From the NCBI GenBank assembly GCA_903824495.1, contig CAIJXB010000061.1, positions 13,569 to 77,568 of the forward strand: DNA of 64,000 nucleotides, written 5' to 3'. Position numbers and translations under genes: made by a program. Source of the stretch: an uncultured Chlamydiae bacterium (lineage in GTDB: Bacteria > Chlamydiota > Chlamydiia > Chlamydiales > Rhabdochlamydiaceae). Positions 706-37,548 of this stretch are shown in pieces. Below the pieces are notes generated by a model, which was given only the letters and a program-made list of their open reading frames with translations, was not told where the DNA came from and ran no database searches. Numbering within the stretch: position 1 is the first letter of the stretch; the number at the start of each line of letters is the position of its first letter.

Positions 706-3700
706 TTAAACTTCTTGAGCGCGTTCAGCGCGAACATCTAAACAAAGCCCTTGCATCTCTTTCACAAGAACATTAAATGATTCCGGAGTACCGGCATTGA
801 GCAGGTTTTCTCCTTTTACAATCGATTCGTAGATGCGAGTACGCCCTGCGACATCATCTGACTTCACAGTCAACATTTCTTGGAGAAGGTGAGCTGCGCC
901 ATAAGCTTCAAGCGCCCACACTTCCATCTCCCCGAAGCGTTGTCCCCCTTGTTGAGCTTTTCCGCCCAGAGGTTGCTGCGTGACCAAAGAGTAAGGTCCA
1001 ATAGAGCGTGCGTGGATCTTATCTGCTACCAAGTGACTTAACTTAAGTATGTAGATGTATCCGACCACAACGCGGCTATCAAAACGCTCTCCGGTTCTTC
1101 CGTCATATAGGTACAATTTACCATCGTCTGGTAAACCTAGGTTTCTCATCATCTCCCAAATACGAGGTTCTGGGAATCCTTCAAACACAGGGCTCTTTAC
1201 GTAGATACCGGATCTTCTTGCTGCAAACCCAAGGTGAGTTTCAAGAAGCTGACCCATGTTCATACGAGAAGGAACACCGAGAGGATTTAAGATAATCTCA
1301 ATGGTTTGTCCATCAGGAAGGTACGGCATGTCCGCTTCTGGAACAATACGGGATACAACCCCTTTGTTTCCGTGGCGACCCGCCATCTTATCTCCTACTT
1401 GCAGCTTACGCTTAGAAGCGATATACACTTTCACTTGACGAATGACGCCAGGATCGAGTTCAGTATCTCCCTTCTTCATGAGCTCAACTTCAGTATTATG
1501 ATGTGTCTGAAGAGTTTGAAGTGCTGTGTCATACTCTCTTAAAATACCCTTGAGGGTAACAAAGAGCTCATGGTCCGGCATGATCAAGTCTTCTAGACTT
1601 TCTGTTTCAAGCATTTCGATTGTGTCTTGAGTGATGACTTCTCCCTCTTGAACAAGAACGTCCCCTCTCTTACGATGAAGAATAGGTCCTGGTGCTTGTT
1701 CGTTCATGAGAAGAGCTCCCAATTTCTCGTGGAACTCCATCATCAGCTCTGCTTCTTTTGTCTTATAATCGTGATGGATGTCTTTAATGCGGCTTGCTTC
1801 TTCAACAAGTTCATCATCAGTCTTAGAAAGACGATCTCTTCTACTGAAGACTTTTACATCCATTACAACCCCTTCCGTTCCTGGAGGCGCTGTAAGCGAT
1901 GCATCTTTTACATCTGCAGCTTTTTCTCCGAAGATTGCTCTTAAGAGTCTTTCTTCTGGAGCGAGTTCCGTTTCAGACTTCGGAGTGATCTTACCAACGA
2001 GAATGTCTCCTGGCTTGACTTCCGCACCAATACGGATGATCCCATCTTCTCCAAGATTTGCTAGAATTTCTTCAGATACGTTTGGAATGTCTCTTGTGAT
2101 CTCTTCTTTTCCAAGTTTTGTATCTCGAGCTGTAAGCTCAAATTCTTCTAGATAAATCGAGGTATAATAGTCTTCTCTTAAAAGTTTTTCAGAGATGATG
2201 ATCGCATCCTCGTAGTTGTATCCACACCAAGGCATGAATGCAACAAGAACGTTTTTACCAAGAGCGATTTCTCCAAGATCCGTAGCTGGACCGTCTGCAA
2301 TGACATCACCTGCTACAATCTCGTCCCCTACATGGCAAAGCGGAGTTTGACTGATACATGTTCCGCCGTTAGAGCGTAAAAACTTCTTCAAGATATACGT
2401 CTTCTTGTGAGACAGGTTAGCTTTGGATGCGATGACGATTTTAAAGCCGTCGACATACTCAATAACTCCATCTTCCTCAGCTATGATTACAGCTCCGGAG
2501 TCTTTTGCAGAACGAAGCTCTAGGCCAGTTCCTACAATCGGCGCATCTGTTCTCAAAAGAGGTACAGCTTGGCGTTGCATGTTTGATCCCATCAAGGCAC
2601 GGTTGGCGTCATCGTGCTCTAGGAACGGAATTAAACCAGTTACAATCGAGACTAGCTGCTTAGAGGAAACGTCCATGTGGGTCGCTTTGCTCGTGTCAAT
2701 AGTCAAGGATTCACCCTTATAACGCGCCCAGCAAAGAGGTTCTGCAAACATGCTATGCTCATCGAGCACAGCTGACGCCTGCGCAATTACGCAGTTTTCT
2801 TCCTGATCGGCTGTCATGTATTCGATTTCGTCAGTTACAACACCGTCTCTTACGATACGGTACGGAGTTTCAATGAAACCAAATTCGTTGATCTTCGCAA
2901 AGGAAGATAAAGAAGTGATAAGTCCAATGTTCGGACCTTCTGGAGTCTCGATAGGACAAACTCTTCCATAGTGGCTTGGGTGAACGTCACGTACTTCAAA
3001 ACCAGCTCTTTCTCTATTAAGACCACCTGGCCCTAAGGAAGAAAGACGTCTTTTGTGCGTAAGCTCTGCAATTGGGTTTGTTTGGTCCATGAATTGGGAC
3101 AACTGAGATCTTCCAAAGAAGTCTTTTAAAACTCCTACGAGTCCTTTAGCTGACACAATTTTACCAGGAGTCAACGTATCGGAAGAAAAATCAAAGAGGT
3201 TCATTCTTTCTTTGATGATCTTCTCCATACGAGCAAGACCGATACGGCATTGGTTTTGGATAAGCTCACCAACAGATCGAACGCGTCTGTTGCCTAAGTG
3301 GTCAATATCGTCCACATGAGCTGATTCATCACCTTTTTTAAGTTGGATCAAATATTTTAGAGCTAAGATCACGTCTTCTTTTTTCAAAGTAACGTTTTGT
3401 AGCTCTTCATCAGAAATGTCTCTGCCCAATTTATAATTGAGTTTATAGCGGCCCACTCTTCCTAGGTTATAACGCTTAGGATCAAAGAAGAGGCGCATAA
3501 TAGCAGAACGTGCATTGGAAAGAGTTGCAGGTTCACCTGGTCTAATTTTTCTGTAAAAATCCTTCAAAGCAGACTCATAAGAATCTGTAGGATCTTTTGC
3601 AAGCATTTTAATCACAGGGCTTGTTTCATCCGCATCTTCTGCAATACGAACAGCTGGGATTTCAGCATCTAACATACGCTTAAGCATCGCAGTTGTCAGT

Positions 3701-4470
3701 TTTTCTGAAGCTTTTCCAAAGATCACACCACTTTGTTCTTCCACAACATCTTCAGCCAAAATTTTTCCAACAAGCTTAGTAAAGTCTTTGTCGGAGCGGA
3801 TTTTCACTTTTACGGTATTGAAGAACTCTTCAATGATGTCCGCATCTGTGGAATAGCCCAAAGTTCTGATGAAGGATGTAGCAAGAATTTTACGGCGGCG
3901 TTTTTTACGGTCGATGTAGATGTAGATTAAATCATTGGAATCAAACGCACTTTCAAGCCAGCTTCCTCTGTACGGGATGATACGGAATGAATAGATCACA
4001 ATTCCTTTAGAATGCCTTTCTTGCTCGAATGAAATTCCAGGAGAGCGGTGTAACTGGGACACGATGACCCTTTCAGCTCCGTTAATCACAAAGGTTCCCT
4101 TGTCAGTCATGACAGGAAGTGTTCCCATGTAAACTTCTTCTTCCTTAATCCCCGTCTCGTCCGTCAGTCTGAACTTTACTTTTAAAGTAACGTTATATGT
4201 GATCCCTCTACGGATACACTCTTCTGGATCGTACTTAGGAACTCCAAGGCTGTACGATAAAAATTCCAAAACGGTCTTTTCATCATATGACTTGATTGGG
4301 AAGATTTCGTTGAATACTTCTTGCAAACCTTCGCTATCCCTTTCATGGGGCAACTTGTCTGCTTGCAGAAACTGCTTGTATGATTTAATTTGAATTTCAA
4401 TCAAATTTGGAAGGTCAATAATTTCTTCTTTTTCACGGAAACTCACCCGATGAGGCGGCTTTTTAAGCAT
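706..4470 (-). CDS. rpoB: DNA-directed RNA polymerase subunit beta
   Basis: The 1254-aa ORF has canonical beta-subunit motifs ([64 protein letters not shown]). It sits between rplL and rpoC. Confidence 0.98.
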
Positions 4471-4597
4471 TGAAATCGCTCCTACCCTATGATTTTTAAT
4501 GGAATCCTTGACTAATGCACTCCAATCGGAACTACGCTCTCGAGAGGCGAATATGCACTAGGAAACTAATAAATATTTACATTGTAAAATAACAACA

Positions 4598-4628
4598 AGG
4601 AACAGAAGCTTTAATCGCCTCTGTTCCT
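4598..4628 (-). terminator. Hairpin between rplL and rpoB (possible attenuator or partial terminator)
   Basis: A 9-bp stem (aggaacaga / tctgttcct) with a 13-nt loop. On the transcribed minus strand it is followed by the U-rich tail UGUUGUUAUUUU. An rplL-rpoB attenuator is known in E. coli, but this one is only a structural guess. Confidence 0.35.
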
Positions 4629-4650
4629 CTTCAAAAAACCAGCTAAAATC

Positions 4651-5049
4651 TTAGAGACCTTTAAGCGTTACTTTTCCACCAGCAGCAGTTGCTTTCTTAG
4701 AAATGTCTTCTGCTTCTGCTTTAGGGCAAGTCTCTTTAAGTACTTTAGGAGCTCCGTCAACTAGATCTTTCGCTTCTTTTAGTCCGAGACCTGTGATTTC
4801 GCGAACAAGCTTGATCATGCCGATCTTCTTGTCAGCTGGAGTTTCTTCTAAAGTAACTTTAAACTCTGTAGACTCAGCTGCTGCAGGAGCTGCAGCTGTT
4901 GGAGCTGCTGCCATCATCATAGGAGCTCCAGATGCGGCTTTTACACCCCATTTGTCTTCAAGAGCAGTTTTGAGTTTAGACATCTCTAAAACGCTCAGTT
5001 TGCTTAGTTCTTCTACTAATTTTTCAATTGTTTGTTCTTGTGTGCTCAC
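4651..5049 (-). CDS. rplL: 50S ribosomal protein L7/L12
   Basis: The 132-aa ORF has an Ala-rich hinge ([13 protein letters not shown]) and a C-terminal [23 protein letters not shown] motif. Confidence 0.95.
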
Positions 5050-5077
5050 GTTAAAACCTCATTAATTATTTGTTAAA

Positions 5078-5608
5078 TTATGAATTGACTTCTTCTTTGC
5101 TATCAGCTGTTTTATTTTCTAAACAGTACACGACGCTGCAAAGCAGAGCCTCAATAGTTGCAAGAGTTTGACTCATTGGAGCTTCAAATGTTCCTAAGAG
5201 CTGAGCACGCATTTCATCTTGGCTTGGTAGCTGAGAAATGAGTTTCAAGTCTGTTTCGGAACAAAGCTGTCCTTCAAAACGTCCTCCGATCACAACAAAA
5301 TTGTCTGTATTTTCTTTGCAGAATTGATACACGTACTTTGTTGTTTCCACAGGGTCACTATCCGCAAAAATCACACCGATGTGACCTTGAAGATTAGAGC
5401 GATCTAAAGTGAATCCAGCTTTTTCAGCTGCCTTAATGAGCATTCTCTTCTTTACGATTTCAAAGCTGCCGCCTGTCTTCGAGATGTTCATACGAAAATC
5501 TGAAGCAAGATTAGGGCTCATTTTTTGATAAGTCGCTAGAACTATGGCTTGAGAGCCATCGATCTTGTCCTTAATTTCTTGCAATAATAGGGATTTTTCC
5601 TGTCTCAT
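5078..5608 (-). CDS. rplJ: 50S ribosomal protein L10
   Basis: A 176-aa ORF in the conserved position between rplA and rplL. Its length and profile are L10-like. Confidence 0.88.
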   Translation of the reverse strand: MRQEKSLLLQEIKDKIDGSQAIVLATYQKMSPNLASDFRMNISKTGGSFEIVKKRMLIKAAEKAGFTLDRSNLQGHIGVIFADSDPVETTKYVYQFCKENTDNFVVIGGRFEGQLCSETDLKLISQLPSQDEMRAQLLGTFEAPMSQTLATIEALLCSVVYCLENKTADSKEEVNS

Positions 5609-6328: not shown

Positions 6329-6757
6329 TTAACCTTCGATTATATCTACGCCCATAGAACGAGCGGTACCCATAATAAGCTGCATAGCAGCCTCTTCGGA
6401 ATTCACACGCATATCCGATCGTTTTCTATTAACGATGTTTCGGACTTGCGTTTTTGTGAGCTTCCCTACTTTGTCCCTATTTGGCACTTTAGAACCTTTC
6501 TCTATCCCTGCTTCTTTTAAAATAAGACGGGAAGATGGAGGTTGTTTTGTGACAAATGTGAACGTTTTATCTGCATAGACAGAGATAACAACAGGAAGAA
6601 TATCCCCTGCTTTATCTTGAGTCTTTGCATTAAATTCCTTACAAAAAGCCATAATATTCACGCCGGCTCCACCCAAAGCTGGGCCAATAGGAGGGGCGGG
6701 ATTAGCTTTTCCTGCAGGGATTTGCAGTTTAATTGTTTTTACAAGTTTTTTCGCCAT
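6329..6757 (-). CDS. rplK: 50S ribosomal protein L11
   Basis: The sequence [43 protein letters not shown] is canonical L11. The track ORF starts two codons earlier (6763, MIMAKK), so the start is ambiguous. Confidence 0.95.
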
Positions 6758-6785
6758 TATCATTCCTTACTGCAAAAAATTCTTT

Positions 6786-7334
6786 CTATACCATTTCTGA
6801 TTCTGCCGACACTTGCTCGACTTGCCAGAATTCTAAATCATCAACTCTTGTTTCTCGACCAAAGATAGATACCATAACACTGAGTCTTCCCTTATCGTGG
6901 AACACTTCAATAACAGTTCCGATGAAGTTAACAAAAACTCCATCTGTAATCTTCACTTTGTCGCCTGCTGTGATATTGTGCTTTTGGACAATACCCTCTT
7001 TCTTCTCTTCTAATTCTGCTAAAATAGCGTCTACTTCTGATTGTGGAAGAGACGACGGTTTTGCTCCGCCTAAAAAGTCCAATACACCATTCGTGTTCTT
7101 GACATACATCCAAGCATCGTCCGTGAGTGTCATCTGAACAAGAATATATCCAGGCCACATCTTTTTCTCGCTGACCTTCTGTTGTCCCTTCTTCACTTCA
7201 GCCACATTTTCAGTAGGCACCAAAACTTCCGCAACAAGCTCGCTCATCCCTTTGGATTCACGATTTTCTTCCAGTGACTTTTTGACCTTTTTTTCAAGTC
7301 CCGATATGACTTGAACTACATACCATTTATGCAT
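6786..7334 (-). CDS. nusG: Transcription termination/antitermination factor NusG
   Basis: A 182-aa ORF with the NGN-domain start MHKWYVVQVISGLEKKVK and a C-terminal KOW-like GDKVKITDGVFVNFIGTV. It lies in the secE-nusG-rplK order. Confidence 0.95.
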   Translation of the reverse strand: MHKWYVVQVISGLEKKVKKSLEENRESKGMSELVAEVLVPTENVAEVKKGQQKVSEKKMWPGYILVQMTLTDDAWMYVKNTNGVLDFLGGAKPSSLPQSEVDAILAELEEKKEGIVQKHNITAGDKVKITDGVFVNFIGTVIEVFHDKGRLSVMVSIFGRETRVDDLEFWQVEQVSAESEMV

Positions 7335-7349
7335 TTTGCCCCTAATTGA

Positions 7350-7583
7350 TTAGCCAAAAATAAAATGTACAACGATCTTTATAGATTCCAGACAGCTCTT
7401 AATCACGAAATCCACAAGATAAATGCCCACGCCAAACAAAAGCGTTGCTAAAACAACCATCTTTGTTGAAAAACTCAATTCTTCTTGAGACGTCCAACTT
7501 ACTTTTTTGAGCTCATCCTTCAAATCTTGGATATAGGAAAAAACAGATAATTTACTTCCAGAACTTGTCTTTTCAGTTTCCAT
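7350..7583 (-). CDS. secE: Preprotein translocase subunit SecE
   Basis: A small protein with one C-terminal TM helix (MVVLATLLFGVGIYLVDFVI), located between tRNA-Trp and nusG. I chose the start at METEK (a GGGGGA SD lies upstream) over the longest ORF start at 7622, which would abut the tRNA. Confidence 0.8.
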   Translation of the reverse strand: METEKTSSGSKLSVFSYIQDLKDELKKVSWTSQEELSFSTKMVVLATLLFGVGIYLVDFVIKSCLESIKIVVHFIFG

Positions 7584-7629
7584 AGTCCCCCATCCAAATT
7601 TTAAAGTTAACTCTACCACCAAACTTCAT

Positions 7630-7702
7630 CGAGTGCGGAGGGATTCGAACCCCCGGCCAGCGACTTTGGAGATCGCTGCTCTACCAGCTGAGCTACGCAC
7701 CC
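7630..7702 (-). tRNA. tRNA-Trp (anticodon CCA)
   Basis: The reverse complement gggtgcgtagctcagctggtagagcagcgatctCCAaagtcgctggccgggggttcgaatccctccgcactc folds as a cloverleaf. It has a 7-bp acceptor stem, the GTTCGAATC T-loop and a CU-CCA-AA anticodon loop. Confidence 0.95.
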
Positions 7703-7766
7703 TGATCATACAACAAGGCTCTTGAACCTTTTTACAAAGGCTCAAGAGCACTTGATTTATCTCAAG

Positions 7767-8951
7767 TTATGCAAGAATCTTTGAAACTGTTCCCGCGCCG
7801 ATGGTTCTTCCACCTTCACGAATAGCAAATCTCATTCCTTCTTCCATAGCTACCGGGCAGATAAGTTCAGCTGTAAGCTCAACGTTATCACCAGGCATGA
7901 TCATCTCTGTTCCTTCTGGAAGCGTTACAGTTCCTGTTACGTCCGTAGTACGGAAGTAGAACTGAGGACGATATCCTGTGAAGAACGGCTTATGACGGCC
8001 ACCCTCATCTTTAGTAAGGATATAAACGGTTCCTTTGAACTTCGTATGTGGCTTACATGTGTTAGGAGCCGCCAAAACCATTCCTCTTTCGATGTCGTTC
8101 TTTTCAACACCTCTGAGTAGGATTCCAACGTTCTCACCAGCACGAGCTTCGTCGAGAAGTTTATTAAACATCTCAAGGCCTGTAGCTACAGTTTCTTTTG
8201 TAGGTCTGATTCCGACGAGTTGTAGCTTGTCGTTAACCTTAACAATCCCTCTTTCAACACGACCTGTAGCAACTGTTCCTCTTCCGGAGATAGAGAAAAC
8301 GTCTTCAACAGGCATCAAGAAAGGCTTGTCAACTTCGCGAGCTGGCGTAGGGATCTTTTCATCCACAGTAGCCATTAGTTTTTCGATGCTCTCAACGTAT
8401 TTAGGATCGCCTTCAAGAGCTTTTAATGCGGAACCTCTGATGATTGGCACATCATTGTATCCTTTAGAAGCTAAAAGTTCTTGTAGCTCCATCTCAACGA
8501 GGTCTACAAGCTCTTCATCACCTTGACCGATCATATCCATCTTGTTTAGGAACACAACAATCGCAGGAACCCCTACTTGGCGAGCAAGTAGAACGTGTTC
8601 TTTCGTTTGAGGCATAGCACCGTCAGTTGCAGCTACGACGAGGATTGCTCCGTCCATCTGAGCAGCACCTGTAATCATGTTCTTGACATAGTCAGCGTGT
8701 CCTGGGCAGTCTACGTGAGCATAGTGTCTATTCGCTGTTTCATACTCAACGTGAGTGGAGTTGATCGTGATTCCACGAGCTTTTTCCTCAGGCGTGTTGT
8801 CGATAGAAGCGTAATCTCTGTACTTCCCTCCGCCTTTTAGGGCGAGCACTTTTGTGATAGCTGCTGTTAGGGATGTTTTTCCGTGGTCGACGTGGCCGAT
8901 CGTTCCAATATTAACGTGCGGCTTTTTTCTTTCAAATGTTTCTTTTGCCAT
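7767..8951 (-). CDS. tuf: Elongation factor Tu
   Basis: A 394-aa ORF with [16 protein letters not shown] and NKMD GTPase motifs. Confidence 0.98.
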
Positions 8952-9603: not shown

Positions 9604-10065
9604 ATGAAAAAAAGTCCATCTTATACAGAAGTGCTATATCTTTACGAGCAGAAACACGAAGCTTTGCTACAAAAATTTTCTTTGCTTAGAGATCCTAAAG
9701 AAATTTATGAGAAGTTGATTGAACTTGGAAGGACTTTACCCCCGCTTCCTGATGATTTAAAAAGGGCTGAAAATTTAGTCCAGGGATGTCAAAGTGAAGT
9801 GTATCTTCTAGCTGAAATAGATCCTGATGGAAAAATGATTTATCATATTGGCTCAGAAGCCCTCATTTCATCAGGGCTTGCCGCCCTTCTTCTTTTGGTC
9901 TATCAAGGAGAGCCTGCTGAAATGGCCATGCTCTGCCCTCCCCTTTTCATCTCAGATCTAGGGCTTGGAAAAAGCCTATCACCAGGAAGGTCGAACGGAC
10001 TTGCTAGCATCTATGCCCGTATGAAGCAAGAAGCTACGAAGCTCTATCTCAAGAAGAACTCTTAA
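9604..10065 (+). CDS. sufE: SufE-like cysteine desulfuration / Fe-S assembly protein
   Basis: A 153-aa ORF with the SufE signature NLVQGCQSEVYL and LSPGRSNGLASIYARM near the C-terminus. Confidence 0.8.
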   Translation: MKKSPSYTEVLYLYEQKHEALLQKFSLLRDPKEIYEKLIELGRTLPPLPDDLKRAENLVQGCQSEVYLLAEIDPDGKMIYHIGSEALISSGLAALLLLVYQGEPAEMAMLCPPLFISDLGLGKSLSPGRSNGLASIYARMKQEATKLYLKKNS

Positions 10066-10865
10066 AGATTTTTTAGCTCTGTTGAGGAGATGGACTCAAC
10101 CTCTGAAAGATCGTCTATGATGACCTCTACACAGGAAGCATCTTCCACCACCCTACTAGCACACCATTGATCAAAATCAGGACCTTCATTACTTTGACTT
10201 GCGATGGTTGTTATGGCTGAACTTCTACCCCCATCACCATTTCCTTGGACAACTTCCAAGTTTGAAGCTTTAGCTAATTTGGATTTGGCTCGAGCAGATT
10301 TGTTATTAAGGGAATAGATGTAATTTTTAATTGCATTGCTGGAATAATATTTGCCGGCAGGCTTTCCTGGAGCATCCATTTCAGAAAAAATCCGAGAAAT
10401 TTCCTCCCACTTTTGAGGATGTTCATCGCTTAATTTTTTAATGATTGCCTTATGACACTCCTGAACACTCCCCCCAAGAGAATTAGGGCTTAAATTATTC
10501 TTCCATTTTTCTCTTACCTGTTTTGCACTTCTGCCTAAGCACCGCATTTCAGCCTGTTCCATAATTTTAGAATCGAAGATCCAACTCTCTATCGAGCTGC
10601 CCCTAGCTGAGCAGGACCTTTCGACCGCACGCTTGACAGTTTCCACCTCTTCATGAGTCCAAATATTTATTTTACTTCTGCGAATAGCTTTAGTAGCAAC
10701 TTCTCTTACTTTCTCACCTTCTTCTTGAGGACCTTCATAATAGTCTATTTTTCTCTTACTCGATCGATTGGGCCTACCACCCTTTTCATCCACTCGAAAA
10801 GGATCCGTCAAAAAATCATTAAGTCTCCACTCATCAACTGGAATAGACATACAAAACCAACCCAA
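10062..10865 (-). CDS. Hypothetical protein with eukaryote-like Myb/SANT (R2R3-like) repeats
   Basis: WTHEEVETVKRAV...GRSAKQVREKWKNNLSPN resembles Myb R2 (GRTxKQCRERWxNxLxP). KWEEISRIF...YYSSNAIKNYIYSLNNK resembles R3 (WxxIAxxLPGRTDNAIKNHWNS). There is a basic KRK patch near the N-terminus, and the upstream region is visibly AT-rich. The domain call is by eye only. Confidence 0.55.
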   Translation of the reverse strand: MGWFCMSIPVDEWRLNDFLTDPFRVDEKGGRPNRSSKRKIDYYEGPQEEGEKVREVATKAIRRSKINIWTHEEVETVKRAVERSCSARGSSIESWIFDSKIMEQAEMRCLGRSAKQVREKWKNNLSPNSLGGSVQECHKAIIKKLSDEHPQKWEEISRIFSEMDAPGKPAGKYYSSNAIKNYIYSLNNKSARAKSKLAKASNLEVVQGNGDGGRSSAITTIASQSNEGPDFDQWCASRVVEDASCVEVIIDDLSEVESISSTELKNL

Positions 10866-11004
10866 ATTTAAATTTTTAATAATAAATTATAGATAAAAAT
10901 AAACAAAAAATCAATTTAAAAAAATTAATTAACTCAAAATGCACTTAAGTTTGACCTTTTATAGCAGATCTAATATGATTTTGCTGAAATAATTGGAGAT
11001 CATT

Positions 11005-11856
11005 ATGAATGCAACACCTATGACATTTTCTCAAAAATGGGACGCTACCGTTTCCTTAGAAGCCCAGGATAGTCACGGATGGACAGCCTTTCGTTATGAT
11101 ATGGGGTGTGTTGGTATCGGCATAGGAGCTGTCGCTATTACTGTGGGAGTTATCGCTCTAGCAGTCTTCAGTGGTATTATTGTCTCCCCTGAAGCCGCCT
11201 TCACCTTAGGCACCTTTGTAGGCTATGTTGTTGGAACCTTAGCAACTAGAGTAGCCAAACCTTTCTATGCTTGGGCTTCCTATCACTATAATCTTGCAAA
11301 TCAAGCTTCTATAGTACGAGAGGAGTATGAACAATTGAGACTCAATCCTAGGATCCTCTGTCCCAAAGGAAAGGCTCTTAGTAGAATTTGGAAGCAAAAT
11401 TATGCTAGCCCCACCTATAATGATTTCCTTCAAGCAAAAGAGACATCCTCTAACACGCACGAGCATAGAAAATTTTTTCGTGAAAAAGAAAGAGACGCTG
11501 CGATCAAAAGAGTAGAGTACATTTTCTGGAAAACACTCGCTAAAAACAATACCCTTTTTGAAAAAGTCTTTCTAGAGCATGGAACAAATGCTGGGGGCTT
11601 TATTGATGCTCATAACGCTATCTCTAAATTTGCTACGTGGGATTCTCGTAGTACGGACGAAAGGCTTGAAGCCATTTATAACCGCGACCTAGATAGCGAC
11701 ATCTTACTGACGTTTAACAATCCAGACATTCCAACTATTTCTTATTCCGCAATTTTGAGAAATGATTACCTGGGATTTCATGAGCGAAAATTTCTTGAAC
11801 AAGACTTCATCCGAGCCTTAACGAACATTCCAGAAACTAGAGAAGAAGCCGTTTAA
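11005..11856 (+). CDS. Hypothetical membrane protein, Inc-like (bilobed hydrophobic domain)
   Basis: About 35 aa from the start there is a roughly 55-aa double hydrophobic segment (VGIGIGAVAITVGVIALAVFSGIIVSPEAAFTLGTFVGYVVGTLA), followed by a soluble C-terminal domain. I preferred the ATG at 11005 (GGAG 6 nt upstream) over the TTG at 10993. Confidence 0.55.
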   Translation: MNATPMTFSQKWDATVSLEAQDSHGWTAFRYDMGCVGIGIGAVAITVGVIALAVFSGIIVSPEAAFTLGTFVGYVVGTLATRVAKPFYAWASYHYNLANQASIVREEYEQLRLNPRILCPKGKALSRIWKQNYASPTYNDFLQAKETSSNTHEHRKFFREKERDAAIKRVEYIFWKTLAKNNTLFEKVFLEHGTNAGGFIDAHNAISKFATWDSRSTDERLEAIYNRDLDSDILLTFNNPDIPTISYSAILRNDYLGFHERKFLEQDFIRALTNIPETREEAV

Positions 11857-13063
11857 GCTCTGTTTGAATCCCCCCACTGATCTCTACTTGTCCGTCTTTA
11901 GTAACGAAAACATCGTACTCAAGACGGACTCCAAATTTACCAGGTAAGTAAATCCCTGGTTCTATAGAAAAACAAGTCTCTGGAAGAATAAGCCTCTCAT
12001 CAAATGTCTCCAAACTGTCCATGTGGGTTCCAGGTCCATGATCTTGCGTATAAATGTTATGACCTGTGCGGTGGATGAAAAATTCTCCATAGCCGGCATC
12101 TTCTATCACTTTGCGTGCAGCTTGATCGACTTCACATCCTTTGATCGGTTTGTTTTGGAAAAACCGCTCTTTTACAAGCAATAAAGCCTCTTGCTGCGCT
12201 TTTTTAACAATCAAAAAGATCTCTTGCTGTAAGACTGTTGGCTCTTTTGATGCAACACCGACTCTACAAATATCTCCATAGATCGCACCTAGCGTGTTTT
12301 TCTTGCACCATAGATCAATCAGTACAAAATCCCCTTGCCTGATCTCTTTATGAACCTCTTTGCTTGGAACATAATGGGGATTGCTGCTGTTTTCATTCAC
12401 AGCGCAAATGGGACCACTTTCGCAGAGGCATCCTTCGCTATGAATCCTTGCAATAATGAACTGCTGCACATCGTATTCTGTTATCTTTTGCTTATCCTTA
12501 AGACTCTTTGCAATAAAATCCCAAGCAGACTCTACCACTAAATCTAAAACATGAGCTGCCTCTAGCTGACTTTTTCTTTGCGCAGGTGTTAATACAGAAG
12601 TAAACTCTTGGATCAAACGAGAGGAAGAAACAACTTCTGGAACGCTTTCCCTTACAAGATCAAGTGTGCCTGCATCCACAAGAGAAATAGCTGGGATGGC
12701 GTTTCTTGGAGAATACTCCATAGCAAGAGAGGTAACGCCTTTTAAGGTTTTTTTCAGCTCTTCTTCAAGAGTTTGCCATTTGAAGTAGGTAACACGAGTT
12801 CCTGGTAAATGGTCTAACACGTGAGCTTCTGTGGCATGAACGATTTTGATAGGTTCACCGTTTGCTGGGATCCAATAAAAAAAGCGTCTACTTAAAAACT
12901 GAGAAGGGGGGATTTCTAAAAACTCTATGGCCAGTGGATTTTTCTTTTGAAAATCGTAGAGGAGCCATCCACTAATCTTTTCTTCTTTTAAAAGAGCTTG
13001 TACGCGCTTAATCTTTTCCATCATCATGAAAAAACTCTTTTGTTTTGTTAGTGATACAGACAC
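11837..13063 (-). CDS. M24-family Xaa-Pro aminopeptidase / prolidase-like peptidase
   Basis: The pita-bread fold motifs DLWCKK...YGDICR, HRTGHNIY, SIEPGIY and GVRLEYDV are present. The start may instead be the MMMEK codons near 13027. Confidence 0.85.
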   Translation of the reverse strand: MSVSLTKQKSFFMMMEKIKRVQALLKEEKISGWLLYDFQKKNPLAIEFLEIPPSQFLSRRFFYWIPANGEPIKIVHATEAHVLDHLPGTRVTYFKWQTLEEELKKTLKGVTSLAMEYSPRNAIPAISLVDAGTLDLVRESVPEVVSSSRLIQEFTSVLTPAQRKSQLEAAHVLDLVVESAWDFIAKSLKDKQKITEYDVQQFIIARIHSEGCLCESGPICAVNENSSNPHYVPSKEVHKEIRQGDFVLIDLWCKKNTLGAIYGDICRVGVASKEPTVLQQEIFLIVKKAQQEALLLVKERFFQNKPIKGCEVDQAARKVIEDAGYGEFFIHRTGHNIYTQDHGPGTHMDSLETFDERLILPETCFSIEPGIYLPGKFGVRLEYDVFVTKDGQVEISGGIQTELKRLLL

Positions 13064-17948: not shown

Positions 17949-20096
17949 ATGAAAACTTATTTAATATCAGATCTTTATGACCTTATCACTCCAGATGGAT
18001 TCATCTCGGAATACTCTCAGATAGATCAAAGACACGCTACAGCTACAGTCCTTATCCAAAAAATCTCCCCTGCATTTAGAGGTTTTGAAATCGATAAAGA
18101 CTTAGTCTCTTTTAACTTAAAAAGCACTCTAGCGCAACTTGGCCTTGATGCTCTTGGAACAGAATACCTTTTAGAAAGACAAGACAGATCTGCTCGAGTT
18201 AAAATTCATTTAACAGCTTACGGCAAACCTGCTGAGCTTCTTTTAAAACAACTCGATATCGGCTCTTACATCGGAAAACTCTTTGCAGCAGACCCTAAAA
18301 GAAAAGTAAGAGATCCGGATTATCTGCTTCGCATGTTCAATAGATGCGATCGCAAAGGACGCCCTCTGTTGTATCTTGGACAACCCGAAAACAGCGAAGA
18401 TCTTATTTTAGAAAAAAAAGACGGCCACACAGTTGCCTTCCTCTCTTTGTTACAAGGAACAATTGCGTATGATGAAGCCATCCTTGGCTTCATCCCAACT
18501 CTTGGCAAAGCTTTAAAACATCCCCACTTTCAAATGAGACCTCTTTTGCAACTTTTACAAAAGTGGCAACCTCAATCTCCCCGCTCTTTATCCGGTGATG
18601 ACATCCTGCTTGTTAAAACGCAGCCTCTACACGTTCGTACGGTCTTTGGCAAGGTTAGACAGGATCTGCTGCCTGAAGGCTTTAAACACACCTCTGCTTG
18701 CATTTTAGAGCCCTCTACTAAAGCCTCTGGTGATGTGTACGAGCTCTTTGGAACAAGTAGCTCCGAAATCAAGACGATCCCTTTAGAGTTTTTTACTTTA
18801 GAACCTCATAGAGAGCACGTCTTCTTTTCAGATCGAGATCAGTTGCAAACGTGCCTTGAAGATAAAGAGGTGCTGTTTCGCGCCTTTGAAACAGCGCCCC
18901 ATCCCTACCATCACAAGGCTGCTGTATTCATCGCAAAAGGCGAGCAGCTCATCAATTTGGAACCTGGCGATTGGATCTCTAAAGAGCCCCATTTTTATGA
19001 ATTTCCCGGCATGATCTACCACTCTGAAAGACAATCCCTCCTTGTTGAAAAATACATTGAACAGCAGCCGATCTACCCCTTTTTAAAAGCGATAGAGGAT
19101 GAACTGATCACAAGCCAAGGAGTTCTTCTTACTCGATTCTTCCCCTCTCCTATGATGAAGAAGATACTGCTTGATGACTTTGTTCATAGATGCCTTAAAG
19201 GGATCTACTTTGAAAAGCCCTCTAGAACTTTTGGAGATTTTTTCTCTCATGAAGACAGATCTATGCTTCTAGACTTAGCGAAATTTGCCATCCCTGTTTA
19301 CTGGGTAGATAAAAAAACAAGGCAGATCTTGCAATACATAGCCAAACCGAACAAAGACACGGGGATGTTTGTTCCCCTGCATTTGATCGATGACTTTTTA
19401 AATGCGGCTTCTTTTGGAATCTATGGCTCCAACTTGATCTATGGCCATTTTGAACAAGAGCTCACGACACTCTTTGCAGGACTTGAAAAACTCCGACATG
19501 AATTCAATCACCCTATGCTCAATACTAAAACACCGATTGCACTCATCACAGGGGGAGGTCCTGGCGTTATGGAGCTAGGCAATAAGGTAGCTAAATCATT
19601 AAAACTTCTTTCTTGTGCAAACCTCGTAGATTTCAACTCCCAAGGTGGCGCGATTGTCAATGAGCAAAATCAAAATCCTTATGTCGACATCAAAATGACC
19701 TATCGCCTCGATCGCCTTGTTGAAAGACAAGCTGAGTTCAATTTAGATTTTCCAATTTTCTTAGCAGGTGGAATCGGAACTGATTTTGAGTACAGTCTTG
19801 AAGAAGTGAGACGAAAAGTAGGATCTACAGCTTTAACGCCGATCCTTCTTTTTGGCCCCGAAGAATACTGGGCACAAAAGATCACTTCCAAATTTCAGTG
19901 TAATTTAAAGACTGGGACCATTGCTGGATCTGAATGGATCAGCAACTGCTTTTACTGCGTACAAAACGCAGATCAGGCTCTGCGCATCTACAAGCAGTTC
20001 CTTTCTGGAGAGCTCCCCATCGGTAAACAAGGCCCCATTTTCGAGGCCGGCTTTGTTGCCGTCAAAGGAGCTCTTCATAGAACTCTAAGCGTTTAA
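17949..20096 (+). CDS. Large protein with a C-terminal LOG/TIGR00730 (PpnN-like nucleotide 5'-monophosphate nucleosidase) domain
   Basis: The C-terminal roughly 200 aa carry ITGGGPGVMELGN and FLAGGIGTDFEYSLEE (the GGGxGxM and PGGxGTxxE LOG motifs). No domain was recognised in the N-terminal roughly 500 aa. Confidence 0.7.
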   Translation: MKTYLISDLYDLITPDGFISEYSQIDQRHATATVLIQKISPAFRGFEIDKDLVSFNLKSTLAQLGLDALGTEYLLERQDRSARVKIHLTAYGKPAELLLKQLDIGSYIGKLFAADPKRKVRDPDYLLRMFNRCDRKGRPLLYLGQPENSEDLILEKKDGHTVAFLSLLQGTIAYDEAILGFIPTLGKALKHPHFQMRPLLQLLQKWQPQSPRSLSGDDILLVKTQPLHVRTVFGKVRQDLLPEGFKHTSACILEPSTKASGDVYELFGTSSSEIKTIPLEFFTLEPHREHVFFSDRDQLQTCLEDKEVLFRAFETAPHPYHHKAAVFIAKGEQLINLEPGDWISKEPHFYEFPGMIYHSERQSLLVEKYIEQQPIYPFLKAIEDELITSQGVLLTRFFPSPMMKKILLDDFVHRCLKGIYFEKPSRTFGDFFSHEDRSMLLDLAKFAIPVYWVDKKTRQILQYIAKPNKDTGMFVPLHLIDDFLNAASFGIYGSNLIYGHFEQELTTLFAGLEKLRHEFNHPMLNTKTPIALITGGGPGVMELGNKVAKSLKLLSCANLVDFNSQGGAIVNEQNQNPYVDIKMTYRLDRLVERQAEFNLDFPIFLAGGIGTDFEYSLEEVRRKVGSTALTPILLFGPEEYWAQKITSKFQCNLKTGTIAGSEWISNCFYCVQNADQALRIYKQFLSGELPIGKQGPIFEAGFVAVKGALHRTLSV

Positions 20097-21328
20097 AAAC
20101 CCCAGGAAAAACCCACTTCTCCATATTGAGTCTTTTCAAGGAAGAACTGACCTTCATAAGAATGTCCATGGTGATACTCTAAGAAAAGACGCATCTTGCG
20201 TCCAAGACCTGAGAGTTTGCTCAGCTCATATCCCGTTTGGATGAAAAGTTCGAGATCCCAATCTCTAATCTGCCAGTTTTCTAAGTGGATGGCTAGGAAT
20301 GGTGTTCCATAGAGTTGATGGTAGTATAATTTTTGACCTAAAATTTTTAACTCTGTTCCATATTTTGCATATAGATATTGCATCGGAAACGACTGATCGC
20401 TATGCAAAATAACGCCGGGACCAAAATAAACTCTTAAATGACCTGATAGCTGATAAGAGGTCATGATCTCAAGAGCTTCAAAGCTTGGATTACGGCGCTT
20501 ATACAAATAGTCAGGGTGGTTGACGATGAACTCATCTCCCAAATGGCTTGAAATGTGATAGAGCCTTGCTCTGAAAGACCATCTATCGTACGCATACGTT
20601 AAAGGGATCCCTAGAAAATAATCGGTATTGACAAGCTCACAAGTTTCGTTGTTTCTATGAGGCACATCGTGGAAGTTAAATACAGCCCAAATAGCTCCTT
20701 CGATCCCGATCTGCAGGGCTCCATTCCATCTAAAGACATCTCTCCAACGAAACAAGGGGAACTCATCTCCGATAGCAACAGAAGCCGCTTCGATCCCAAC
20801 GACATGGTCCCCATAGCGGTAAGCTGCAAAGTTATAGGGCTCTCTTGGGTCTGCAATAACAGGCTGGAACAAAATAGTCGCCTGAGGAAACCAGATCCCC
20901 TCAACTCTCGGCTGCTCTACATACTTTTCCCTCGATGCAATCTCTGACTGGCTCAGTTCCTTGCGCTCAACAGACTGAACTCCCGGTAGATCTTTCACAA
21001 AATTGATAATACTTGTAGAGGTCAGTTCGTTCTTTGGAAGGTTTGTTAGATAGACCTTGTGATCTTTAACAGTGACGATTACCTGGAACTCGTAGAAGTG
21101 CATATCGACAAGGGCTTGGATGTAACCTTCTAAGTAAGGATCTGTCGAATCCTCAAAGTTCTCTACGGGTAAACTATCTGCCCTCGTGAGTAGCACTGGC
21201 TCTATATAGGCCACTTCTTTTGATTCAAGGCCATCGCAGAGGCCTTCACTGTCGGCCTGCAAAGCCGCAATGCCCAAAATACACGATAAAAAACACGCCA
21301 GTCGCTTTGAGAAAATTGATCTATCCAT
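20093..21328 (-). CDS. Secreted BON-domain protein with a DUF1207-like C-terminal region
   Basis: It has a signal peptide (FLSCILGIAALQA) and a BON-like segment (VIVTVKDHKVYLTNLP...FVKDLPGVQSVE). The aromatic-rich C-terminus ends GFSWGF. My recollection is that the roughly 410-aa DUF1207 family is chlamydia-associated, but this was not verified. Confidence 0.55.
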   Translation of the reverse strand: MDRSIFSKRLACFLSCILGIAALQADSEGLCDGLESKEVAYIEPVLLTRADSLPVENFEDSTDPYLEGYIQALVDMHFYEFQVIVTVKDHKVYLTNLPKNELTSTSIINFVKDLPGVQSVERKELSQSEIASREKYVEQPRVEGIWFPQATILFQPVIADPREPYNFAAYRYGDHVVGIEAASVAIGDEFPLFRWRDVFRWNGALQIGIEGAIWAVFNFHDVPHRNNETCELVNTDYFLGIPLTYAYDRWSFRARLYHISSHLGDEFIVNHPDYLYKRRNPSFEALEIMTSYQLSGHLRVYFGPGVILHSDQSFPMQYLYAKYGTELKILGQKLYYHQLYGTPFLAIHLENWQIRDWDLELFIQTGYELSKLSGLGRKMRLFLEYHHGHSYEGQFFLEKTQYGEVGFSWGF

Positions 21329-23511: not shown

Positions 23512-24747
23512 TTATGTGATGTTTCGGTTCCATAAAGGAATGGTTTGAAGATGTTTCGAAATTGCGTTACGTGCTTCCTTATTTAAAGGAAGGTCTCCAA
23601 CTGTTTTCCAGCTTTCAGAAAAGGCTTGCACAGTTTCTTTCACAGTATCCAGGACTAGATTTTCAGGTAATAGAGTTTTGGCAGCAAAACGTTTGAACTG
23701 GTCCAATGTAAGAGATCCAAAGTCTTTATTATCTACAAATTTTAAAGAGAGTGAATCTTCGGGCAAATAAAGAATTGTTGAAACAAAATCATATGCAGGC
23801 GCAAGCGATGGTTTATTCCTCTCTCTATAAATAAGAGACCAATTTTTTAGATGCATATCGCCATTTCCAATGAGTGCATTAAAAACAAATCGCTTGATAA
23901 ATTCTACAACACCAGGTTCTCCAACTTCGCGCCAAATGACGTCTGCTATATTTCGATAACTTGCCTGTTTATACTTCTTTTCAGGATAAACACCAAAAAC
24001 CTGTGCGAAATCTTCTATATGGATTTTATCGTCACTTTCAGTTCTGTCAAAGCGTTTGATAACAAATACATTATCCACCAGCTGCTCAAAGTCTTTAGGA
24101 AGTCCTTGCACTTGATTAACAGGAATCAAACTAGTTTGAGGAACATCAATGCCTATTCTTCTAGCTAATTCCATCATTGTGTATTCATTTTCGGGAACAT
24201 CTTTGAATCTAGTGTGTGGGAGTTTTATAATCCATCCTCCTCCAATTCCATTTACAGGGATGGTCAATCCATGATCGTCTTCTACGGCTGAGAATTTCAA
24301 TTGGACTCCAGCTAATGAAAAACGCAGAAGGACTTCTTTCTTTTTTTCGCTTTTTAATTTTGAGAGGTCTTCTTGAAAAAGCTTTCCATTATCAATGGAT
24401 TCAATTGTAAGCGCTCCAGGTAAATCTTGCCCAAGAGCTTCTAAAAGAGAAAATTCATGTTTGGGATTAAGATTTGCGCGTTTTGCTAAATAGTCGCGCA
24501 AGGGTCCCTCTGGCAAAAGATTCGCAAAAAATGGGGAAAGGCGTGTCTGCGTAATCTCTGAATCTGTGATGAGTTCCCCTAGAACATTTTTAAAAGATAG
24601 ACTAAGAGTAGGGCGAGAGGGGTTCTGAATGTAGTCGGAATCGAATACAAACAGGTTTTTATCACCGGGCAAATGAGTTATTGTACCGATTTGATCGTTA
24701 TACAAAAGAACTTTGAGCGTTTTGGTATCAGTCGTCATCGCTGTCAT
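23512..24747 (-). CDS. hipA: HipA-family Ser/Thr kinase toxin (type II TA)
   Basis: A 411-aa ORF with the N-terminal coupling motif FSLAGVQLKFS and the catalytic GNGDMHLKNWSLIY (GNxDxHxKN). It overlaps the upstream HTH gene by 20 nt. Confidence 0.9.
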   Translation of the reverse strand: MTAMTTDTKTLKVLLYNDQIGTITHLPGDKNLFVFDSDYIQNPSRPTLSLSFKNVLGELITDSEITQTRLSPFFANLLPEGPLRDYLAKRANLNPKHEFSLLEALGQDLPGALTIESIDNGKLFQEDLSKLKSEKKKEVLLRFSLAGVQLKFSAVEDDHGLTIPVNGIGGGWIIKLPHTRFKDVPENEYTMMELARRIGIDVPQTSLIPVNQVQGLPKDFEQLVDNVFVIKRFDRTESDDKIHIEDFAQVFGVYPEKKYKQASYRNIADVIWREVGEPGVVEFIKRFVFNALIGNGDMHLKNWSLIYRERNKPSLAPAYDFVSTILYLPEDSLSLKFVDNKDFGSLTLDQFKRFAAKTLLPENLVLDTVKETVQAFSESWKTVGDLPLNKEARNAISKHLQTIPLWNRNIT

Positions 24748-25283: not shown

Positions 25284-26234
25284 TCAATCGGTTTCCGAAA
25301 AACTGATATAGGCATTCAGTAGATTAAGAATTTCTTGAGGTAGATCTTTTGAAAGACATTGTTCGATGAAATCAGAAGGTTCTTTGGTCTCATTCAGAAG
25401 TTTCAAAAAGTCATTAATGTCGGCATCATGCAGAGCCAAAAAAGACAAAAGAGCCTTATCTTCAAAAAGACATGCCGGAAACTGCACAAGAATCGAAACA
25501 AGAGCCCCTACCCCCACTTTAGTCGAATCGAAATAAACCCTTTGCTTTACAATTTTTCCTACTAAATCGTTAAGGCTATAACGCAATGCTATAGGAAGAA
25601 TGTAATCTAGGTCGTCTACTAAATAATAGCGCAAATAACCGCAACACTCCCTTAGAGTTTGTATAATCTGCCCATCATCCGGATCATCCTCCGTCACATC
25701 ATTACAAAGACTAAGAAACAGATCTTTAGCGGCGCTTTTTGCATTTAATTCCCTTCGGTATTCTTCGTCACTTAAAACACTGGGAGCCGAACGCTTCTTT
25801 GACCTCAAGCCGTATTGTTGACGAGCTTTCTCTTCACGCACATTTCTTTGATTTTCTACATAGATTGTTCTCTCTTCTGGAGTCAAACTTTCAAGCTCTT
25901 GGACTTTTTCTTTAACCTTTAGGACAAAAAGATCTTGAACCTTTTTTAGATCTTCAGGCAGTAGTAACTCTTCAAGTTCAGAATAGGTACCTTGCAGAGC
26001 CTCAATCTTACCTGCGAGTAAAGGATACTGATCCAGACCCTGAGACTTTAAAACATTTTCACTTAAAGCCCTTAAAGCCACGATTGCAACACCAAAATCT
26101 CCCTCTTTTTCCACCTGGATTACGAGCTGCTCTTGAAATGAGGCTGCATATTGCATGATTTGTGTAGGATTTAAAGGCGTCATATTACTCACATTAAATT
26201 TAAATAAAAAATATATGGAGCGATATTTTGACAT
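25284..26234 (-). CDS. Hypothetical protein (no domain recognised; possible effector)
   Basis: A 316-aa helical, charged ORF. An alternative start is MTPLNP at 26183. Both flanking intergenic regions are AT-rich. Confidence 0.55.
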   Translation of the reverse strand: MSKYRSIYFLFKFNVSNMTPLNPTQIMQYAASFQEQLVIQVEKEGDFGVAIVALRALSENVLKSQGLDQYPLLAGKIEALQGTYSELEELLLPEDLKKVQDLFVLKVKEKVQELESLTPEERTIYVENQRNVREEKARQQYGLRSKKRSAPSVLSDEEYRRELNAKSAAKDLFLSLCNDVTEDDPDDGQIIQTLRECCGYLRYYLVDDLDYILPIALRYSLNDLVGKIVKQRVYFDSTKVGVGALVSILVQFPACLFEDKALLSFLALHDADINDFLKLLNETKEPSDFIEQCLSKDLPQEILNLLNAYISFSETD

Positions 26235-37008: not shown

Positions 37009-37548
37009 ATGACATCTACTATTACACTCTCTACAAGACTGCCTTCTGGAGAAGGTCACGAAACGATCATTAGATCTAAAAACTTCAAAACCAAAGACAA
37101 CTTTGCAAACTACGCACTAAACATTCTAAGCAAACAACACAATCTATCACCTGATAGCCTTAGAGTTTTTAAGACCTACTTAACCTCTCGATGTGATCGC
37201 ATTACTTACTGCCTGTCTACAGATCCAGGAATCTCTTATATAGAAAAAAGTGAACCCTTTTTTATCCCAATAGAAATTCCTGAAATCCAAGAAACAGCTA
37301 AGAAAGTGTGTAAAGCGGTATCTACAGCTCGAGACCTTTCAGAAAAAATGCAAGTGTTCAATTTTGCAAAAGCTAATAAGAGCACAGATTTTGTATTGAA
37401 AGCTTTTTTTCATTCAAGCGACTTTGAAACAATCACCCTCGAATCAATCACTCCCAATATAAAAACAACATACTCAACGCTTCTCTCTAGCGACGATTCA
37501 GATGACGGTGAGCTTTCTTCCGAAGACGATGACACTGTCTTAGTATAG
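37009..37548 (+). CDS. Hypothetical protein with an acidic Ser/Asp C-terminal tail
   Basis: A 179-aa ORF ending LLSSDDSDDGELSSEDDDTVLV. No domain was recognised. Confidence 0.55.
   Translation: MTSTITLSTRLPSGEGHETIIRSKNFKTKDNFANYALNILSKQHNLSPDSLRVFKTYLTSRCDRITYCLSTDPGISYIEKSEPFFIPIEIPEIQETAKKVCKAVSTARDLSEKMQVFNFAKANKSTDFVLKAFFHSSDFETITLESITPNIKTTYSTLLSSDDSDDGELSSEDDDTVLV

Follow-up and report, generated by a model that had tools for sequence, protein, structure and literature searches.

The window analyzed in this study is a 64,000-nucleotide stretch of contig CAIJXB010000061.1 from an uncultured Chlamydiae bacterium of the Rhabdochlamydiaceae, an environmental chlamydia with a guanine-cytosine (GC) content of 0.415. 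One part of it shows the gene order tRNA-Trp, EF-Tu, tRNA-Thr, IF-1, SufE, a Myb-like gene, an Inc-like gene, an M24 peptidase and a HEAT-repeat protein, and the Myb-like gene is the subject of this report. The original prediction held that this gene encodes eukaryote-like Myb/SANT repeats and that it could be a nucleomodulin or a host-derived gene. The data presented here establish that it is a genuine bacterial gene for a protein with a c-Myb-type R2R3 DNA-binding domain, and that this protein belongs to a rare and rapidly diversifying family. The gene and its parts are as follows.

10062-10850, minus strand: Myb-like protein gene, 262 amino acids (aa) from ATG 10850, with the stop codon at 10062-10064.
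10749-10775, minus strand: basic N-terminal motif RPNRSSKRK, aa 26-34, with an AT-hook-like GRP core; in syntenic orthologs GRP.R.SKR..D[CY]Y.
10485-10670, minus strand: Myb repeat 1, R2-like, aa 61-122, made up of helix 1, a family-specific insertion, helix 2 and the recognition helix AKQVREKWKNNL, as placed by the translation, the AlphaFold2 (AF2) helices, the c-Myb alignment and Pfam.
10296-10484, minus strand: Myb repeat 2, R3-like, aa 123-185, with a GKPAGKYY insertion and the recognition helix SNAIKNYIYSLNNK, as placed by the profile match, AF2 and the c-Myb alignment.
10203-10295, minus strand: basic Ser-rich linker, aa 186-216; orthologs keep RSS..T..SQ.
10065-10202, minus strand: acidic hydrophobic C-terminal tail, aa 217-262, net charge -9, isoelectric point (pI) 4.05, with the motifs GPDFDQWC and VEVIIDDLSEVE.

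The list of open reading frames (ORFs) has this frame at 10062-10865 on the minus strand, which gives 267 aa if it is started at TTG 10865. An identical 262-aa protein that starts at the ATG at 10850 is present in NCBI/ENA (P0001), and ATG 10850 was taken as the start because the orthologs of P0001 also begin with MS[IV]S. Both motifs from which Myb recognition helices had been proposed were found in the translation (GRSAKQVREKWKNNLSPN at aa 106-123 and SSNAIKNYIYSLNNK at aa 170-184), as were the aromatic positions expected upstream of them (WTHEE at aa 64-68 and KWEEISRIF at aa 147-155). The helix spacing had been described as longer than canonical, and this is the case in both repeats: repeat 1 has an insertion between helices 1 and 2, and repeat 2 has an insertion of about 10 aa (MDAPGKPAGKYY) ahead of the recognition helix.

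The Myb match of the window sequence alone is borderline, because the Pfam scores are just over the cutoffs and a PDB search with the single sequence found c-Myb only at an E of about 0.05. PF13921 (Myb_DNA-bind_6) gave 23.1 bits against a cutoff of 22.9 with the whole protein (E=8.6e-5) and 26.7 bits with the isolated module, and PF00249 gave 24.7 against a cutoff of 24.4 with the isolated module. At the family level, however, the match is strong. An alignment of 23 modules, A1, was used for the profile, the AF2 model and the contact-residue counts. When the A1 profile was searched against the PDB, c-Myb R2R3 (1h88_C) was found at E=2.9e-14, and the alignments with 1gv2 and 1mse cover both repeats. 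B-Myb, plant WER and Trichomonas Myb1-3 came next in this ranking, and then CDC5/Cef1. Taken individually, 17-18 of the 23 modules match Pfam Myb models, with a best E of 6.6e-15.

AF2 run on the single whole sequence was uninformative (predicted local distance difference test score, pLDDT, 36.7) and was replaced by an A1-based model of the module. This model has a pLDDT of 91.2 and a predicted template modeling score (pTM) of 0.79, and it consists of two three-helix bundles (in module numbering, helices 6-23, 31-43 and 49-60 in repeat 1 and 71-83, 88-97 and 111-124 in repeat 2), in each of which helix 3 is the recognition helix. A beta-bridge in the model joins the repeat linker and the GKxxGKYY insertion of repeat 2. 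Comparison with the PDB by Foldseek agreed with the proposed likeness to R2R3: the best matches are the DNA-bound R2R3 Mybs 1h89_C, 3zqc, 6kks and 3osf/3osg, with template modeling (TM) scores of 0.61-0.72, a root mean square deviation of about 3.2 A over about 121 columns, and 27-29% identity to c-Myb in the structural alignments. CDC5L/Cef1 comes next after the R2R3 Mybs in the Foldseek ranking, and the sole match in a library of viral structures was a CDC5-like protein of a giant virus.

The contact residues were compared by aligning c-Myb residues 90-193 to A1, using a c-Myb sequence whose numbering was checked through C130. The base-contacting set of c-Myb, which we take to be K128, E132, N136, N179, K182, N183, N186 and S187, is said to have been described by Ogata et al. 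in 1994, and such residues are reportedly missing in SANT domains. Seven of these eight positions are identical in the window protein: repeat 1 keeps the equivalents of K128, E132 and N136, and repeat 2 keeps those of N179, K182, N183 and S187, the exception being N186, which is Y. Across the 23 modules K182 is kept in 21, N183 in 19, and K128 and E132 in 15 each. The equivalents of W134 and W166 are W in all 23 modules and that of W95 is W in 20. At the position of W147, the first Trp of R3, every module has I or V instead, and at that of W185 the residue is F, Y or I; Trp substitutions of this kind are known from plant R3 repeats.

Most modules are basic, the mean net charge over the modules being +5.5 (+4 and a pI of 9.0 for the window module), which favors nucleic-acid binding of the Myb type over a SANT-type surface. 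Classification as a SANT domain was rejected on the basis of this pI and charge and of the conserved contact residues. The NAIKN motif, which we take to be a mark of the c-Myb (3R-type) class, and the ranking of the PDB matches both point to that class for the window protein. The claim of a Myb/SANT domain in the original prediction is therefore borne out on the Myb side by Pfam Myb models over cutoff, the family profile, the fold and the contact residues.

Among known proteins, the R2R3 regions of c-Myb and B-Myb (PF00249/PF13921; 1h88, 1h89, 1mse, 1gv2) are the best match in both sequence and structure, with two tandem three-helix repeats and the recognition helices KQxRExWxNxL and NAIKN in common with the chlamydial protein. 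The chlamydial protein differs from them in being encoded by a bacterium, in having no R1 repeat and in its lower net charge, and its family has insertions of 10-25 aa in repeat 1 and of about 10 aa (GKxxGKYY) ahead of the third helix in repeat 2. It also departs from c-Myb in the I or V found in place of the first R3 Trp and in the change of N186 to Y. The spliceosomal proteins CDC5L/Cef1 have the two-repeat Myb fold as well (TM 0.50-0.62, sequence E down to 2.3e-5), but they are a weaker match than c-Myb, and the c-Myb-type base-contact residues and NAIKN favor the c-Myb class. The RsfA family of the Firmicutes belongs to the Myb-like clan of Pfam and consists of bacterial proteins with a single repeat, whereas the window protein has a c-Myb-like R2R3 pair. 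An NCBIfam scan with E up to 10 gave no RsfA-family match, only a spurious TorC, and membership in RsfA was rejected on both grounds.

An exhaustive phmmer search of 1.84 billion cluster representatives (E<=1e-3) returned 23 clusters. A characteristic module of about 120-130 aa is carried by 18 of them, and its signature is W..EE, an insertion, GR..KQ[IL]REKW.N.L.PN, KW..IS..F, a further insertion and YYS.N.IKNYF. The number of modules per protein is one, or two (P0003, P0007 and P0017) or three (P0002). The bacterial-type members are singleton or near-singleton clusters from metagenome-assembled genomes (MAGs) or metagenomes and have no informative names. Four weaker matches resemble ordinary eukaryotic R2R3 Mybs, and the cluster of one of these, P0019, includes a protein of the labyrinthulomycete Aplanochytrium. 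P0009 (3146 aa) matched the tail region only and fell out of the domain hidden Markov model. A pattern scan of 241 million metagenome records using a tighter alignment, A2, added one more locus, L036, with two modules, and an A2 pattern scan of viral contigs gave no family locus. No relatives were found when species-representative genomes were searched with P0001, and there were no paralogs in the window or in 28 syntenic chlamydial loci. A word-indexed search returned P0001 alone with P0001 as the query and nothing with A1 although members exist, so this result was taken to reflect an insensitive method and not absence.

Several features outside the Myb module are also conserved. Short motifs are kept in the syntenic orthologs although overall identity is 31-38% (alignment A3), and those of the tail are kept as P[SD]FD[EQ]hh and hh..DL[SK].E, in which h stands for any hydrophobic residue. 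The acidic C-terminus that had been pointed out is indeed pronounced, since the last 45 aa have a net charge of -9 and rank second in acidity among the C-termini of the 46 window ORFs that reach 150 aa or more. Most full-length family members end in an acidic tail with many F, W, L and Y residues, and 13 of 18 members have K[KR]x[KR] motifs beside their modules. In the window protein aa 183-216 have a net charge of +4, and the N-terminal segment, aa 1-60, contains the motif GGRPNRSSKRKIDYY. The KRK patch noted earlier near the N-terminus is present within RPNRSSKRK (aa 26-34), but it departs from the classical K[KR]x[KR] pattern of a nuclear localization signal (NLS). P0006 has RGRGRPRKG at the corresponding place, with an AT-hook-like look.

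The idea of a host-derived gene finds support in a distant sense only. The best eukaryotic matches are weak (E of about 1e-4 to 1e-5, 24-35% identity), and no close eukaryotic donor is found among the phmmer matches from the 1.84 billion cluster representatives. The GC content equals that of the genome, which together with the weak eukaryotic matches argues against a recent transfer.

The surroundings of the gene contain the following features.

9604-10065, plus strand: SufE, conserved flank.
10088-11697, no strand: hypervariable island between SufE and the M24 peptidase, delimited by blastn against the locus L029 of a sister genome.
10886-10914, minus strand: sigma-70-like promoter match TTGATT-17-TATAAT (10/12), 36 nt upstream of the ATG of the Myb-like gene.
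10951-10979, plus strand: sigma-70-like promoter match TTGACC-17-TATGAT (10/12) for the Inc-like gene.
11005-11856, plus strand: Inc-like gene, 283 aa from ATG, the divergent neighbor and second island gene, with a bilobed hydrophobic hairpin at about 11104-11247.
11837-13063, minus strand: M24 peptidase, conserved flank.

When the window was compared with L029 by blastn, identity was 94.7% up to 10087, then collapsed so that the Myb core alone could be aligned (72%), and resumed at 87% from 11698. The nucleotide identity to L029 reaches 25 nt into the 3' end of the Myb-like ORF. The proteins follow the same pattern, with identities of 99% for EF-Tu, 100% for IF-1, 93% for SufE and 89% for the M24 peptidase, and of 43% for the Myb-like and 36-45% for the Inc-like protein. 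A query with the M24 peptidase gave 28 chlamydial loci, 20 of which have SufE, IF-1 and EF-Tu alongside, and the Myb module was found in none of these 28 syntenic loci. The closest species representative, L001 (EF-Tu 92%, M24 71%), has an ortholog of the Inc-like gene and lacks the Myb-like gene. The Myb slot of L001 holds a 127-aa Rce1-like (CPBP/CAAX protease) fragment at 10136-10519 on the minus strand, which indicates that the slot turns over between unrelated genes.

In closer relatives the Myb slot is occupied by P0004 (L029), by P0025 and P0005 in tandem (L031) or by the two-module P0007 (L032), and the content of the island differs among L001, L029, L031 and L032. The island of L029 is 5.8 kb long and encodes an 844-aa protein with a C-terminus resembling the Inc-like protein. 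A 477-aa protein encoded at 6439-7872 (minus strand) of L029 has an abhydrolase and a zf-Nse/SP-RING/U-box-like domain (zf-Nse 29.8 bits against 27; U-box E=0.0019) and is another effector candidate, possibly a SUMO or ubiquitin E3-like enzyme. In the window, neither tRNAs at the island junctions nor terminator-like sites were found, and there are no meaningful direct or inverted repeats on either side of the island. A mobile-element origin was rejected, as neither a junction tRNA nor flanking repeats nor other signatures were present.

A second hotspot was found in L037, where four intact tandem Myb-like genes (194, 240, 249 and 224 aa) lie at 2157-5491 on the plus strand, between glnA and mutS-orf-dnaG. 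The same contig, with a GC content of 0.373, has a truncated Myb-like fragment at 3621-3878, and P0021 adjoins the same mutS-dnaG block on another contig. The mutS-orf-dnaG order presumably resembles that of Chlamydia, and comparison of L034, L035 and L037 with the window and the chlamydial loci did not settle their taxonomy.

The Myb-like gene converges on SufE, the two stop codons overlapping in TTAA at 10062-10065, and no terminator-like structure was found between the two genes. On its other side, the AT-rich divergent promoter region that it was thought to have in common with the Inc-like gene was verified by an intergenic GC content of 0.30. The number of sigma-70-like sites in this spacer is not above that in shuffled sequences, so the evidence for the two promoter matches is positional only. 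The spacer and the 5' ends are better kept than the gene bodies (identity reaches 74% with L031 over 10848-11075 and 81% with L029 over 10945-11043), which suggests that a regulatory core may be retained inside the hypervariable island. As read from its sequence, the Inc-like protein is bilobed and hydrophobic at residues 38-85 (GCVGIGIGAVAITVGVIALAVFSGIIV-SPEAA-FTLGTFVGYVVGTLA), in agreement with the bilobed hydrophobic domain of some 40-60 aa that Inc proteins have near the N-terminus. It has no Pfam family, and its orthologs in L001, L029, L031 and L032 are 31-48% identical to it.

Rates of nonsynonymous (dN) and synonymous (dS) substitution and their ratio (omega) were calculated by the Nei-Gojobori method. 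Between the window and L029, EF-Tu, SufE and the M24 peptidase have a dN of 0.003-0.059, a dS of 0.19-0.5 and an omega of 0.018-0.118, and the Myb-like gene has a dN of 0.546, a dS of 1.38 and an omega of about 0.4. The raised dS of the Myb-like gene suggests that the island alleles are older than their flanks. Besides fast evolution in place, this points to recombination or to replacement by alleles of a diverse pool. When two near-identical pairs of alleles, taken from different samples, were pooled, the estimates were a dN of 0.009, a dS of 0.017 and an omega of 0.52, which is suggestive only. Selection on the Myb-like gene is relaxed or diversifying, as is typical of host-directed effectors.

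The explanation that we favor, though we give it only about an even chance, is that the Myb-like protein is secreted and, in the host nucleus, mimics or competes with transcription factors at AAC-core Myb sites. Chlamydiae all have a type III secretion system, and the protein would be exported into the host cell, probably by this route, and would then enter the host nucleus. There its two Myb repeats would bind AAC-core, Myb-binding-site-like DNA by means of AKQVREKWKNNL and SNAIKNYIYS, and the acidic hydrophobic tail would recruit host co-activators or titrate them away. The protein would in this way imitate host Myb transcription factors or compete with them, as a functional analogue of transcription activator-like (TAL) effectors. 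The Myb homology, the fold, the contact residues, the basic domain, the tail motifs, the island and the raised dN and dN/dS are observed; secretion, nuclear import, the DNA target and activation or interference are predicted.

This explanation is favored because the gene has features that are usual in host-directed effectors and unusual in bacterial regulators. These include the eukaryote-type DNA-binding domain, a patchy distribution with absence from close relatives, accelerated evolution, Inc-like and U-box-like neighbors, basic motifs, a tail with h-x-x-h-h-like motifs, and variable module and copy number. The proposal of a candidate nucleomodulin stands in part. The hypervariable island, the Inc-like and U-box neighbors, the dN/dS values, the copy-number variation and the family's tails and KKRK motifs speak for it circumstantially, but the N-terminus of the window protein is plain and K[KR]x[KR] is missing.

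A number of observations weigh against the favored explanation or do not add to it. No signal peptide or transmembrane segment was found in the Myb-like protein. The fraction of S, T, P, N and Q in residues 2-26 is 0.20, compared with a window background of 0.26 +/- 0.10, and several acidic residues are among the first 25; at the N-terminus of most relatives this fraction is 0.28-0.60. P0001 lacks a K[KR]x[KR] NLS and has only SKRK and KSARAKSK patches, and the ortholog P0004 (193 aa) has no acidic tail. The omega of the pooled allele pairs is based on only 15 substitutions, 10 nonsynonymous and 5 synonymous. Finally, bacterial gene regulation would be just as possible a role for a DNA-binding domain whose gene adjoins its own AT-rich promoter. 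A wider scenario, in which injected modular R2R3-Myb factors with 1-3 modules, basic import motifs and an acidic activation tail bind host promoters directly, reprogram protist transcription (for example Myb-controlled development such as encystment) and diversify in an arms race at the hotspots, as a Myb-based counterpart of TAL effectors, is possible, though we hold it tentatively and would sooner bet against it than for it.

One alternative is that the protein is an endogenous regulator or nucleoid-associated protein of the chlamydial cytoplasm, acting for example on its own divergent promoter and on the Inc-like gene. We regard this as unlikely. It would account for a DNA-binding fold with a basic surface, for a gene that adjoins a conserved AT-rich divergent promoter region while gene bodies diverge, and for the lack of a demonstrated secretion signal. 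However, neither L001 nor any of the 28 syntenic chlamydial loci has the gene, its omega and dN are far over those of the housekeeping genes, and the numbers of copies and of modules are variable. It is not obvious what acidic tails and KKRK motifs would do in such a regulator, and NCBIfam gave no RsfA match.

The protein could also be secreted and yet not be a sequence-specific activator. It might bind histone tails, remodelers or spliceosomal RNA or proteins in the manner of SANT or CDC5-like domains, or it might passively block host Myb sites. The residues that it has in common with c-Myb are precisely the base-contacting ones, c-Myb and B-Myb are clearly better sequence matches than CDC5, and the model is closest to DNA-bound R2R3 conformations. 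For these reasons this is judged quite improbable, even though CDC5L/Cef1 forms the second tier of sequence and structure matches, the only viral match is a giant-virus CDC5-like protein, and the module's net charge of +4 is well under the +12 of c-Myb, with some modules of the family being neutral.

It is very unlikely that the gene is a decaying or functionless relic of a horizontally acquired gene that evolves near-neutrally in a recombination hotspot. An omega of about 0.4-0.5 could be seen in this light, as could the truncated copy in L037, the frame-changed C-terminus of P0024 and the absence of the gene from L001. A relic does not fit with intact ORFs in at least 18 bacterial-type clusters, with invariant W134 and W166 and nearly invariant K182 and N183, with conserved motifs outside the domain, or with an omega below 1 across the divergent pair of the window and L029. 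The confident AF2 fold obtained from only 23 sequences also indicates that the structure has been preserved. Eukaryotic contamination or a chimeric MAG assembly, which a typically eukaryotic domain in a MAG might bring to mind, can be dismissed almost entirely, since chlamydial housekeeping genes lie on both sides of the gene, at least four assemblies, independent of each other and from different samples, have family members in this slot, the GC content is that of the genome, the gene lacks introns and its 3' end overlaps the stop codon of SufE.

If the Myb-like protein is indeed a secreted mimic or competitor of host Myb factors, its place among known effectors is of interest. To our knowledge, transcription-factor mimics that bind DNA are rare among bacterial effectors, and direct binding of host DNA by an effector acting as a transcription factor is well established for hardly any group but the TAL effectors of plant pathogens. 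A chlamydial R2R3-Myb family would then be a second, independent solution to the host-DNA-binding effector, outside the plant pathogens. TAL effectors (Xanthomonas AvrBs3/PthA) and Pantoea HsvG/HsvB are DNA-binding transcription activators injected by type III secretion (PMC7819608). The likeness to them lies in the proposed logic of a DNA-binding module, basic NLS-like motifs and an acidic C-terminal activation-like region, with secretion and activation being predictions in the present case. Module number varies between alleles in both the TAL effectors and this family, and the loci are variable in both. The fold is different, as three-helix Myb repeats stand against the 33-35-aa repeats with repeat-variable diresidues (RVDs) of TAL effectors, there is no sequence similarity, and the hosts here are presumably protists and not plants. 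Membership in the TAL family was rejected because the window protein has no tandem 33-35-aa RVD repeats and no TAL Pfam match.

The nucleomodulins NUE (a SET-domain methyltransferase), SINC, Ehrlichia TRP/Ank200, Anaplasma AnkA and Coxiella AnkG are eukaryote-like or nucleus-directed, and some of them bind host DNA (PMC7819608, PMC4436835, PMC8824381). They too come from obligate intracellular bacteria, but none has a Myb domain as described in those three papers. Myb-like factors in Legionella and Chlamydiota are covered by one generic sentence (PMC10579323), and a preprint on the genus Legionella makes no mention of Myb. The literature search found no description of a chlamydial Myb-type effector family, its hotspots or its architecture. 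Effectors with eukaryote-like domains and nucleomodulins are thus already known, and a Myb-based family is not described in the literature searched.

A secreted Myb family would also offer a way to test by what means environmental chlamydiae control the protists that they infect. Because the confidently modeled 125-aa module retains the c-Myb contact residues, its target motif could be determined quickly in vitro and then searched for in host genomes. The SufE/M24 and mutS-dnaG hotspots mark sites at which more effectors of uncultured chlamydiae might be sought.

Other genes of the window include a full-length HipA-type toxin kinase at 23512-24747 (minus strand), with HipA_C at E=1.2e-51 and the HipA N-terminal domain; toxin-antitoxin systems are uncommon in obligate intracellular bacteria. 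At 46528-50289 (plus strand) lies an unusual large fusion of 1253 aa, with an FAD-binding domain, an arabinonolactone-oxidase/BBE-like oxidase and a weak methyltransferase region. Three ORFs, at 17949-20096 (plus strand), 25284-26234 (minus strand) and 37009-37548 (plus strand), have no Pfam family and may be further lineage-specific host-interaction genes. The 179-aa ORF among them ends in the most acidic tail of the window (net charge -11), and L032 has a 715-aa gene with no Pfam match at the place corresponding to the Pfam-less window ORFs. An 822-aa, Pmp-like autotransporter at 26380-28848 (plus strand; beta-domain E=9.4e-32) and a DUF1207 protein at 20093-21328 (minus strand) look like ordinary chlamydial surface or outer-membrane proteins. 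Among the relatives, L001 and L009 are environmental MAGs labeled 'Chlamydia trachomatis'. Their M24 peptidases are 71% and 54% identical to that of the window, and this low identity together with a gene content of the environmental chlamydial type suggests that the label is probably wrong.

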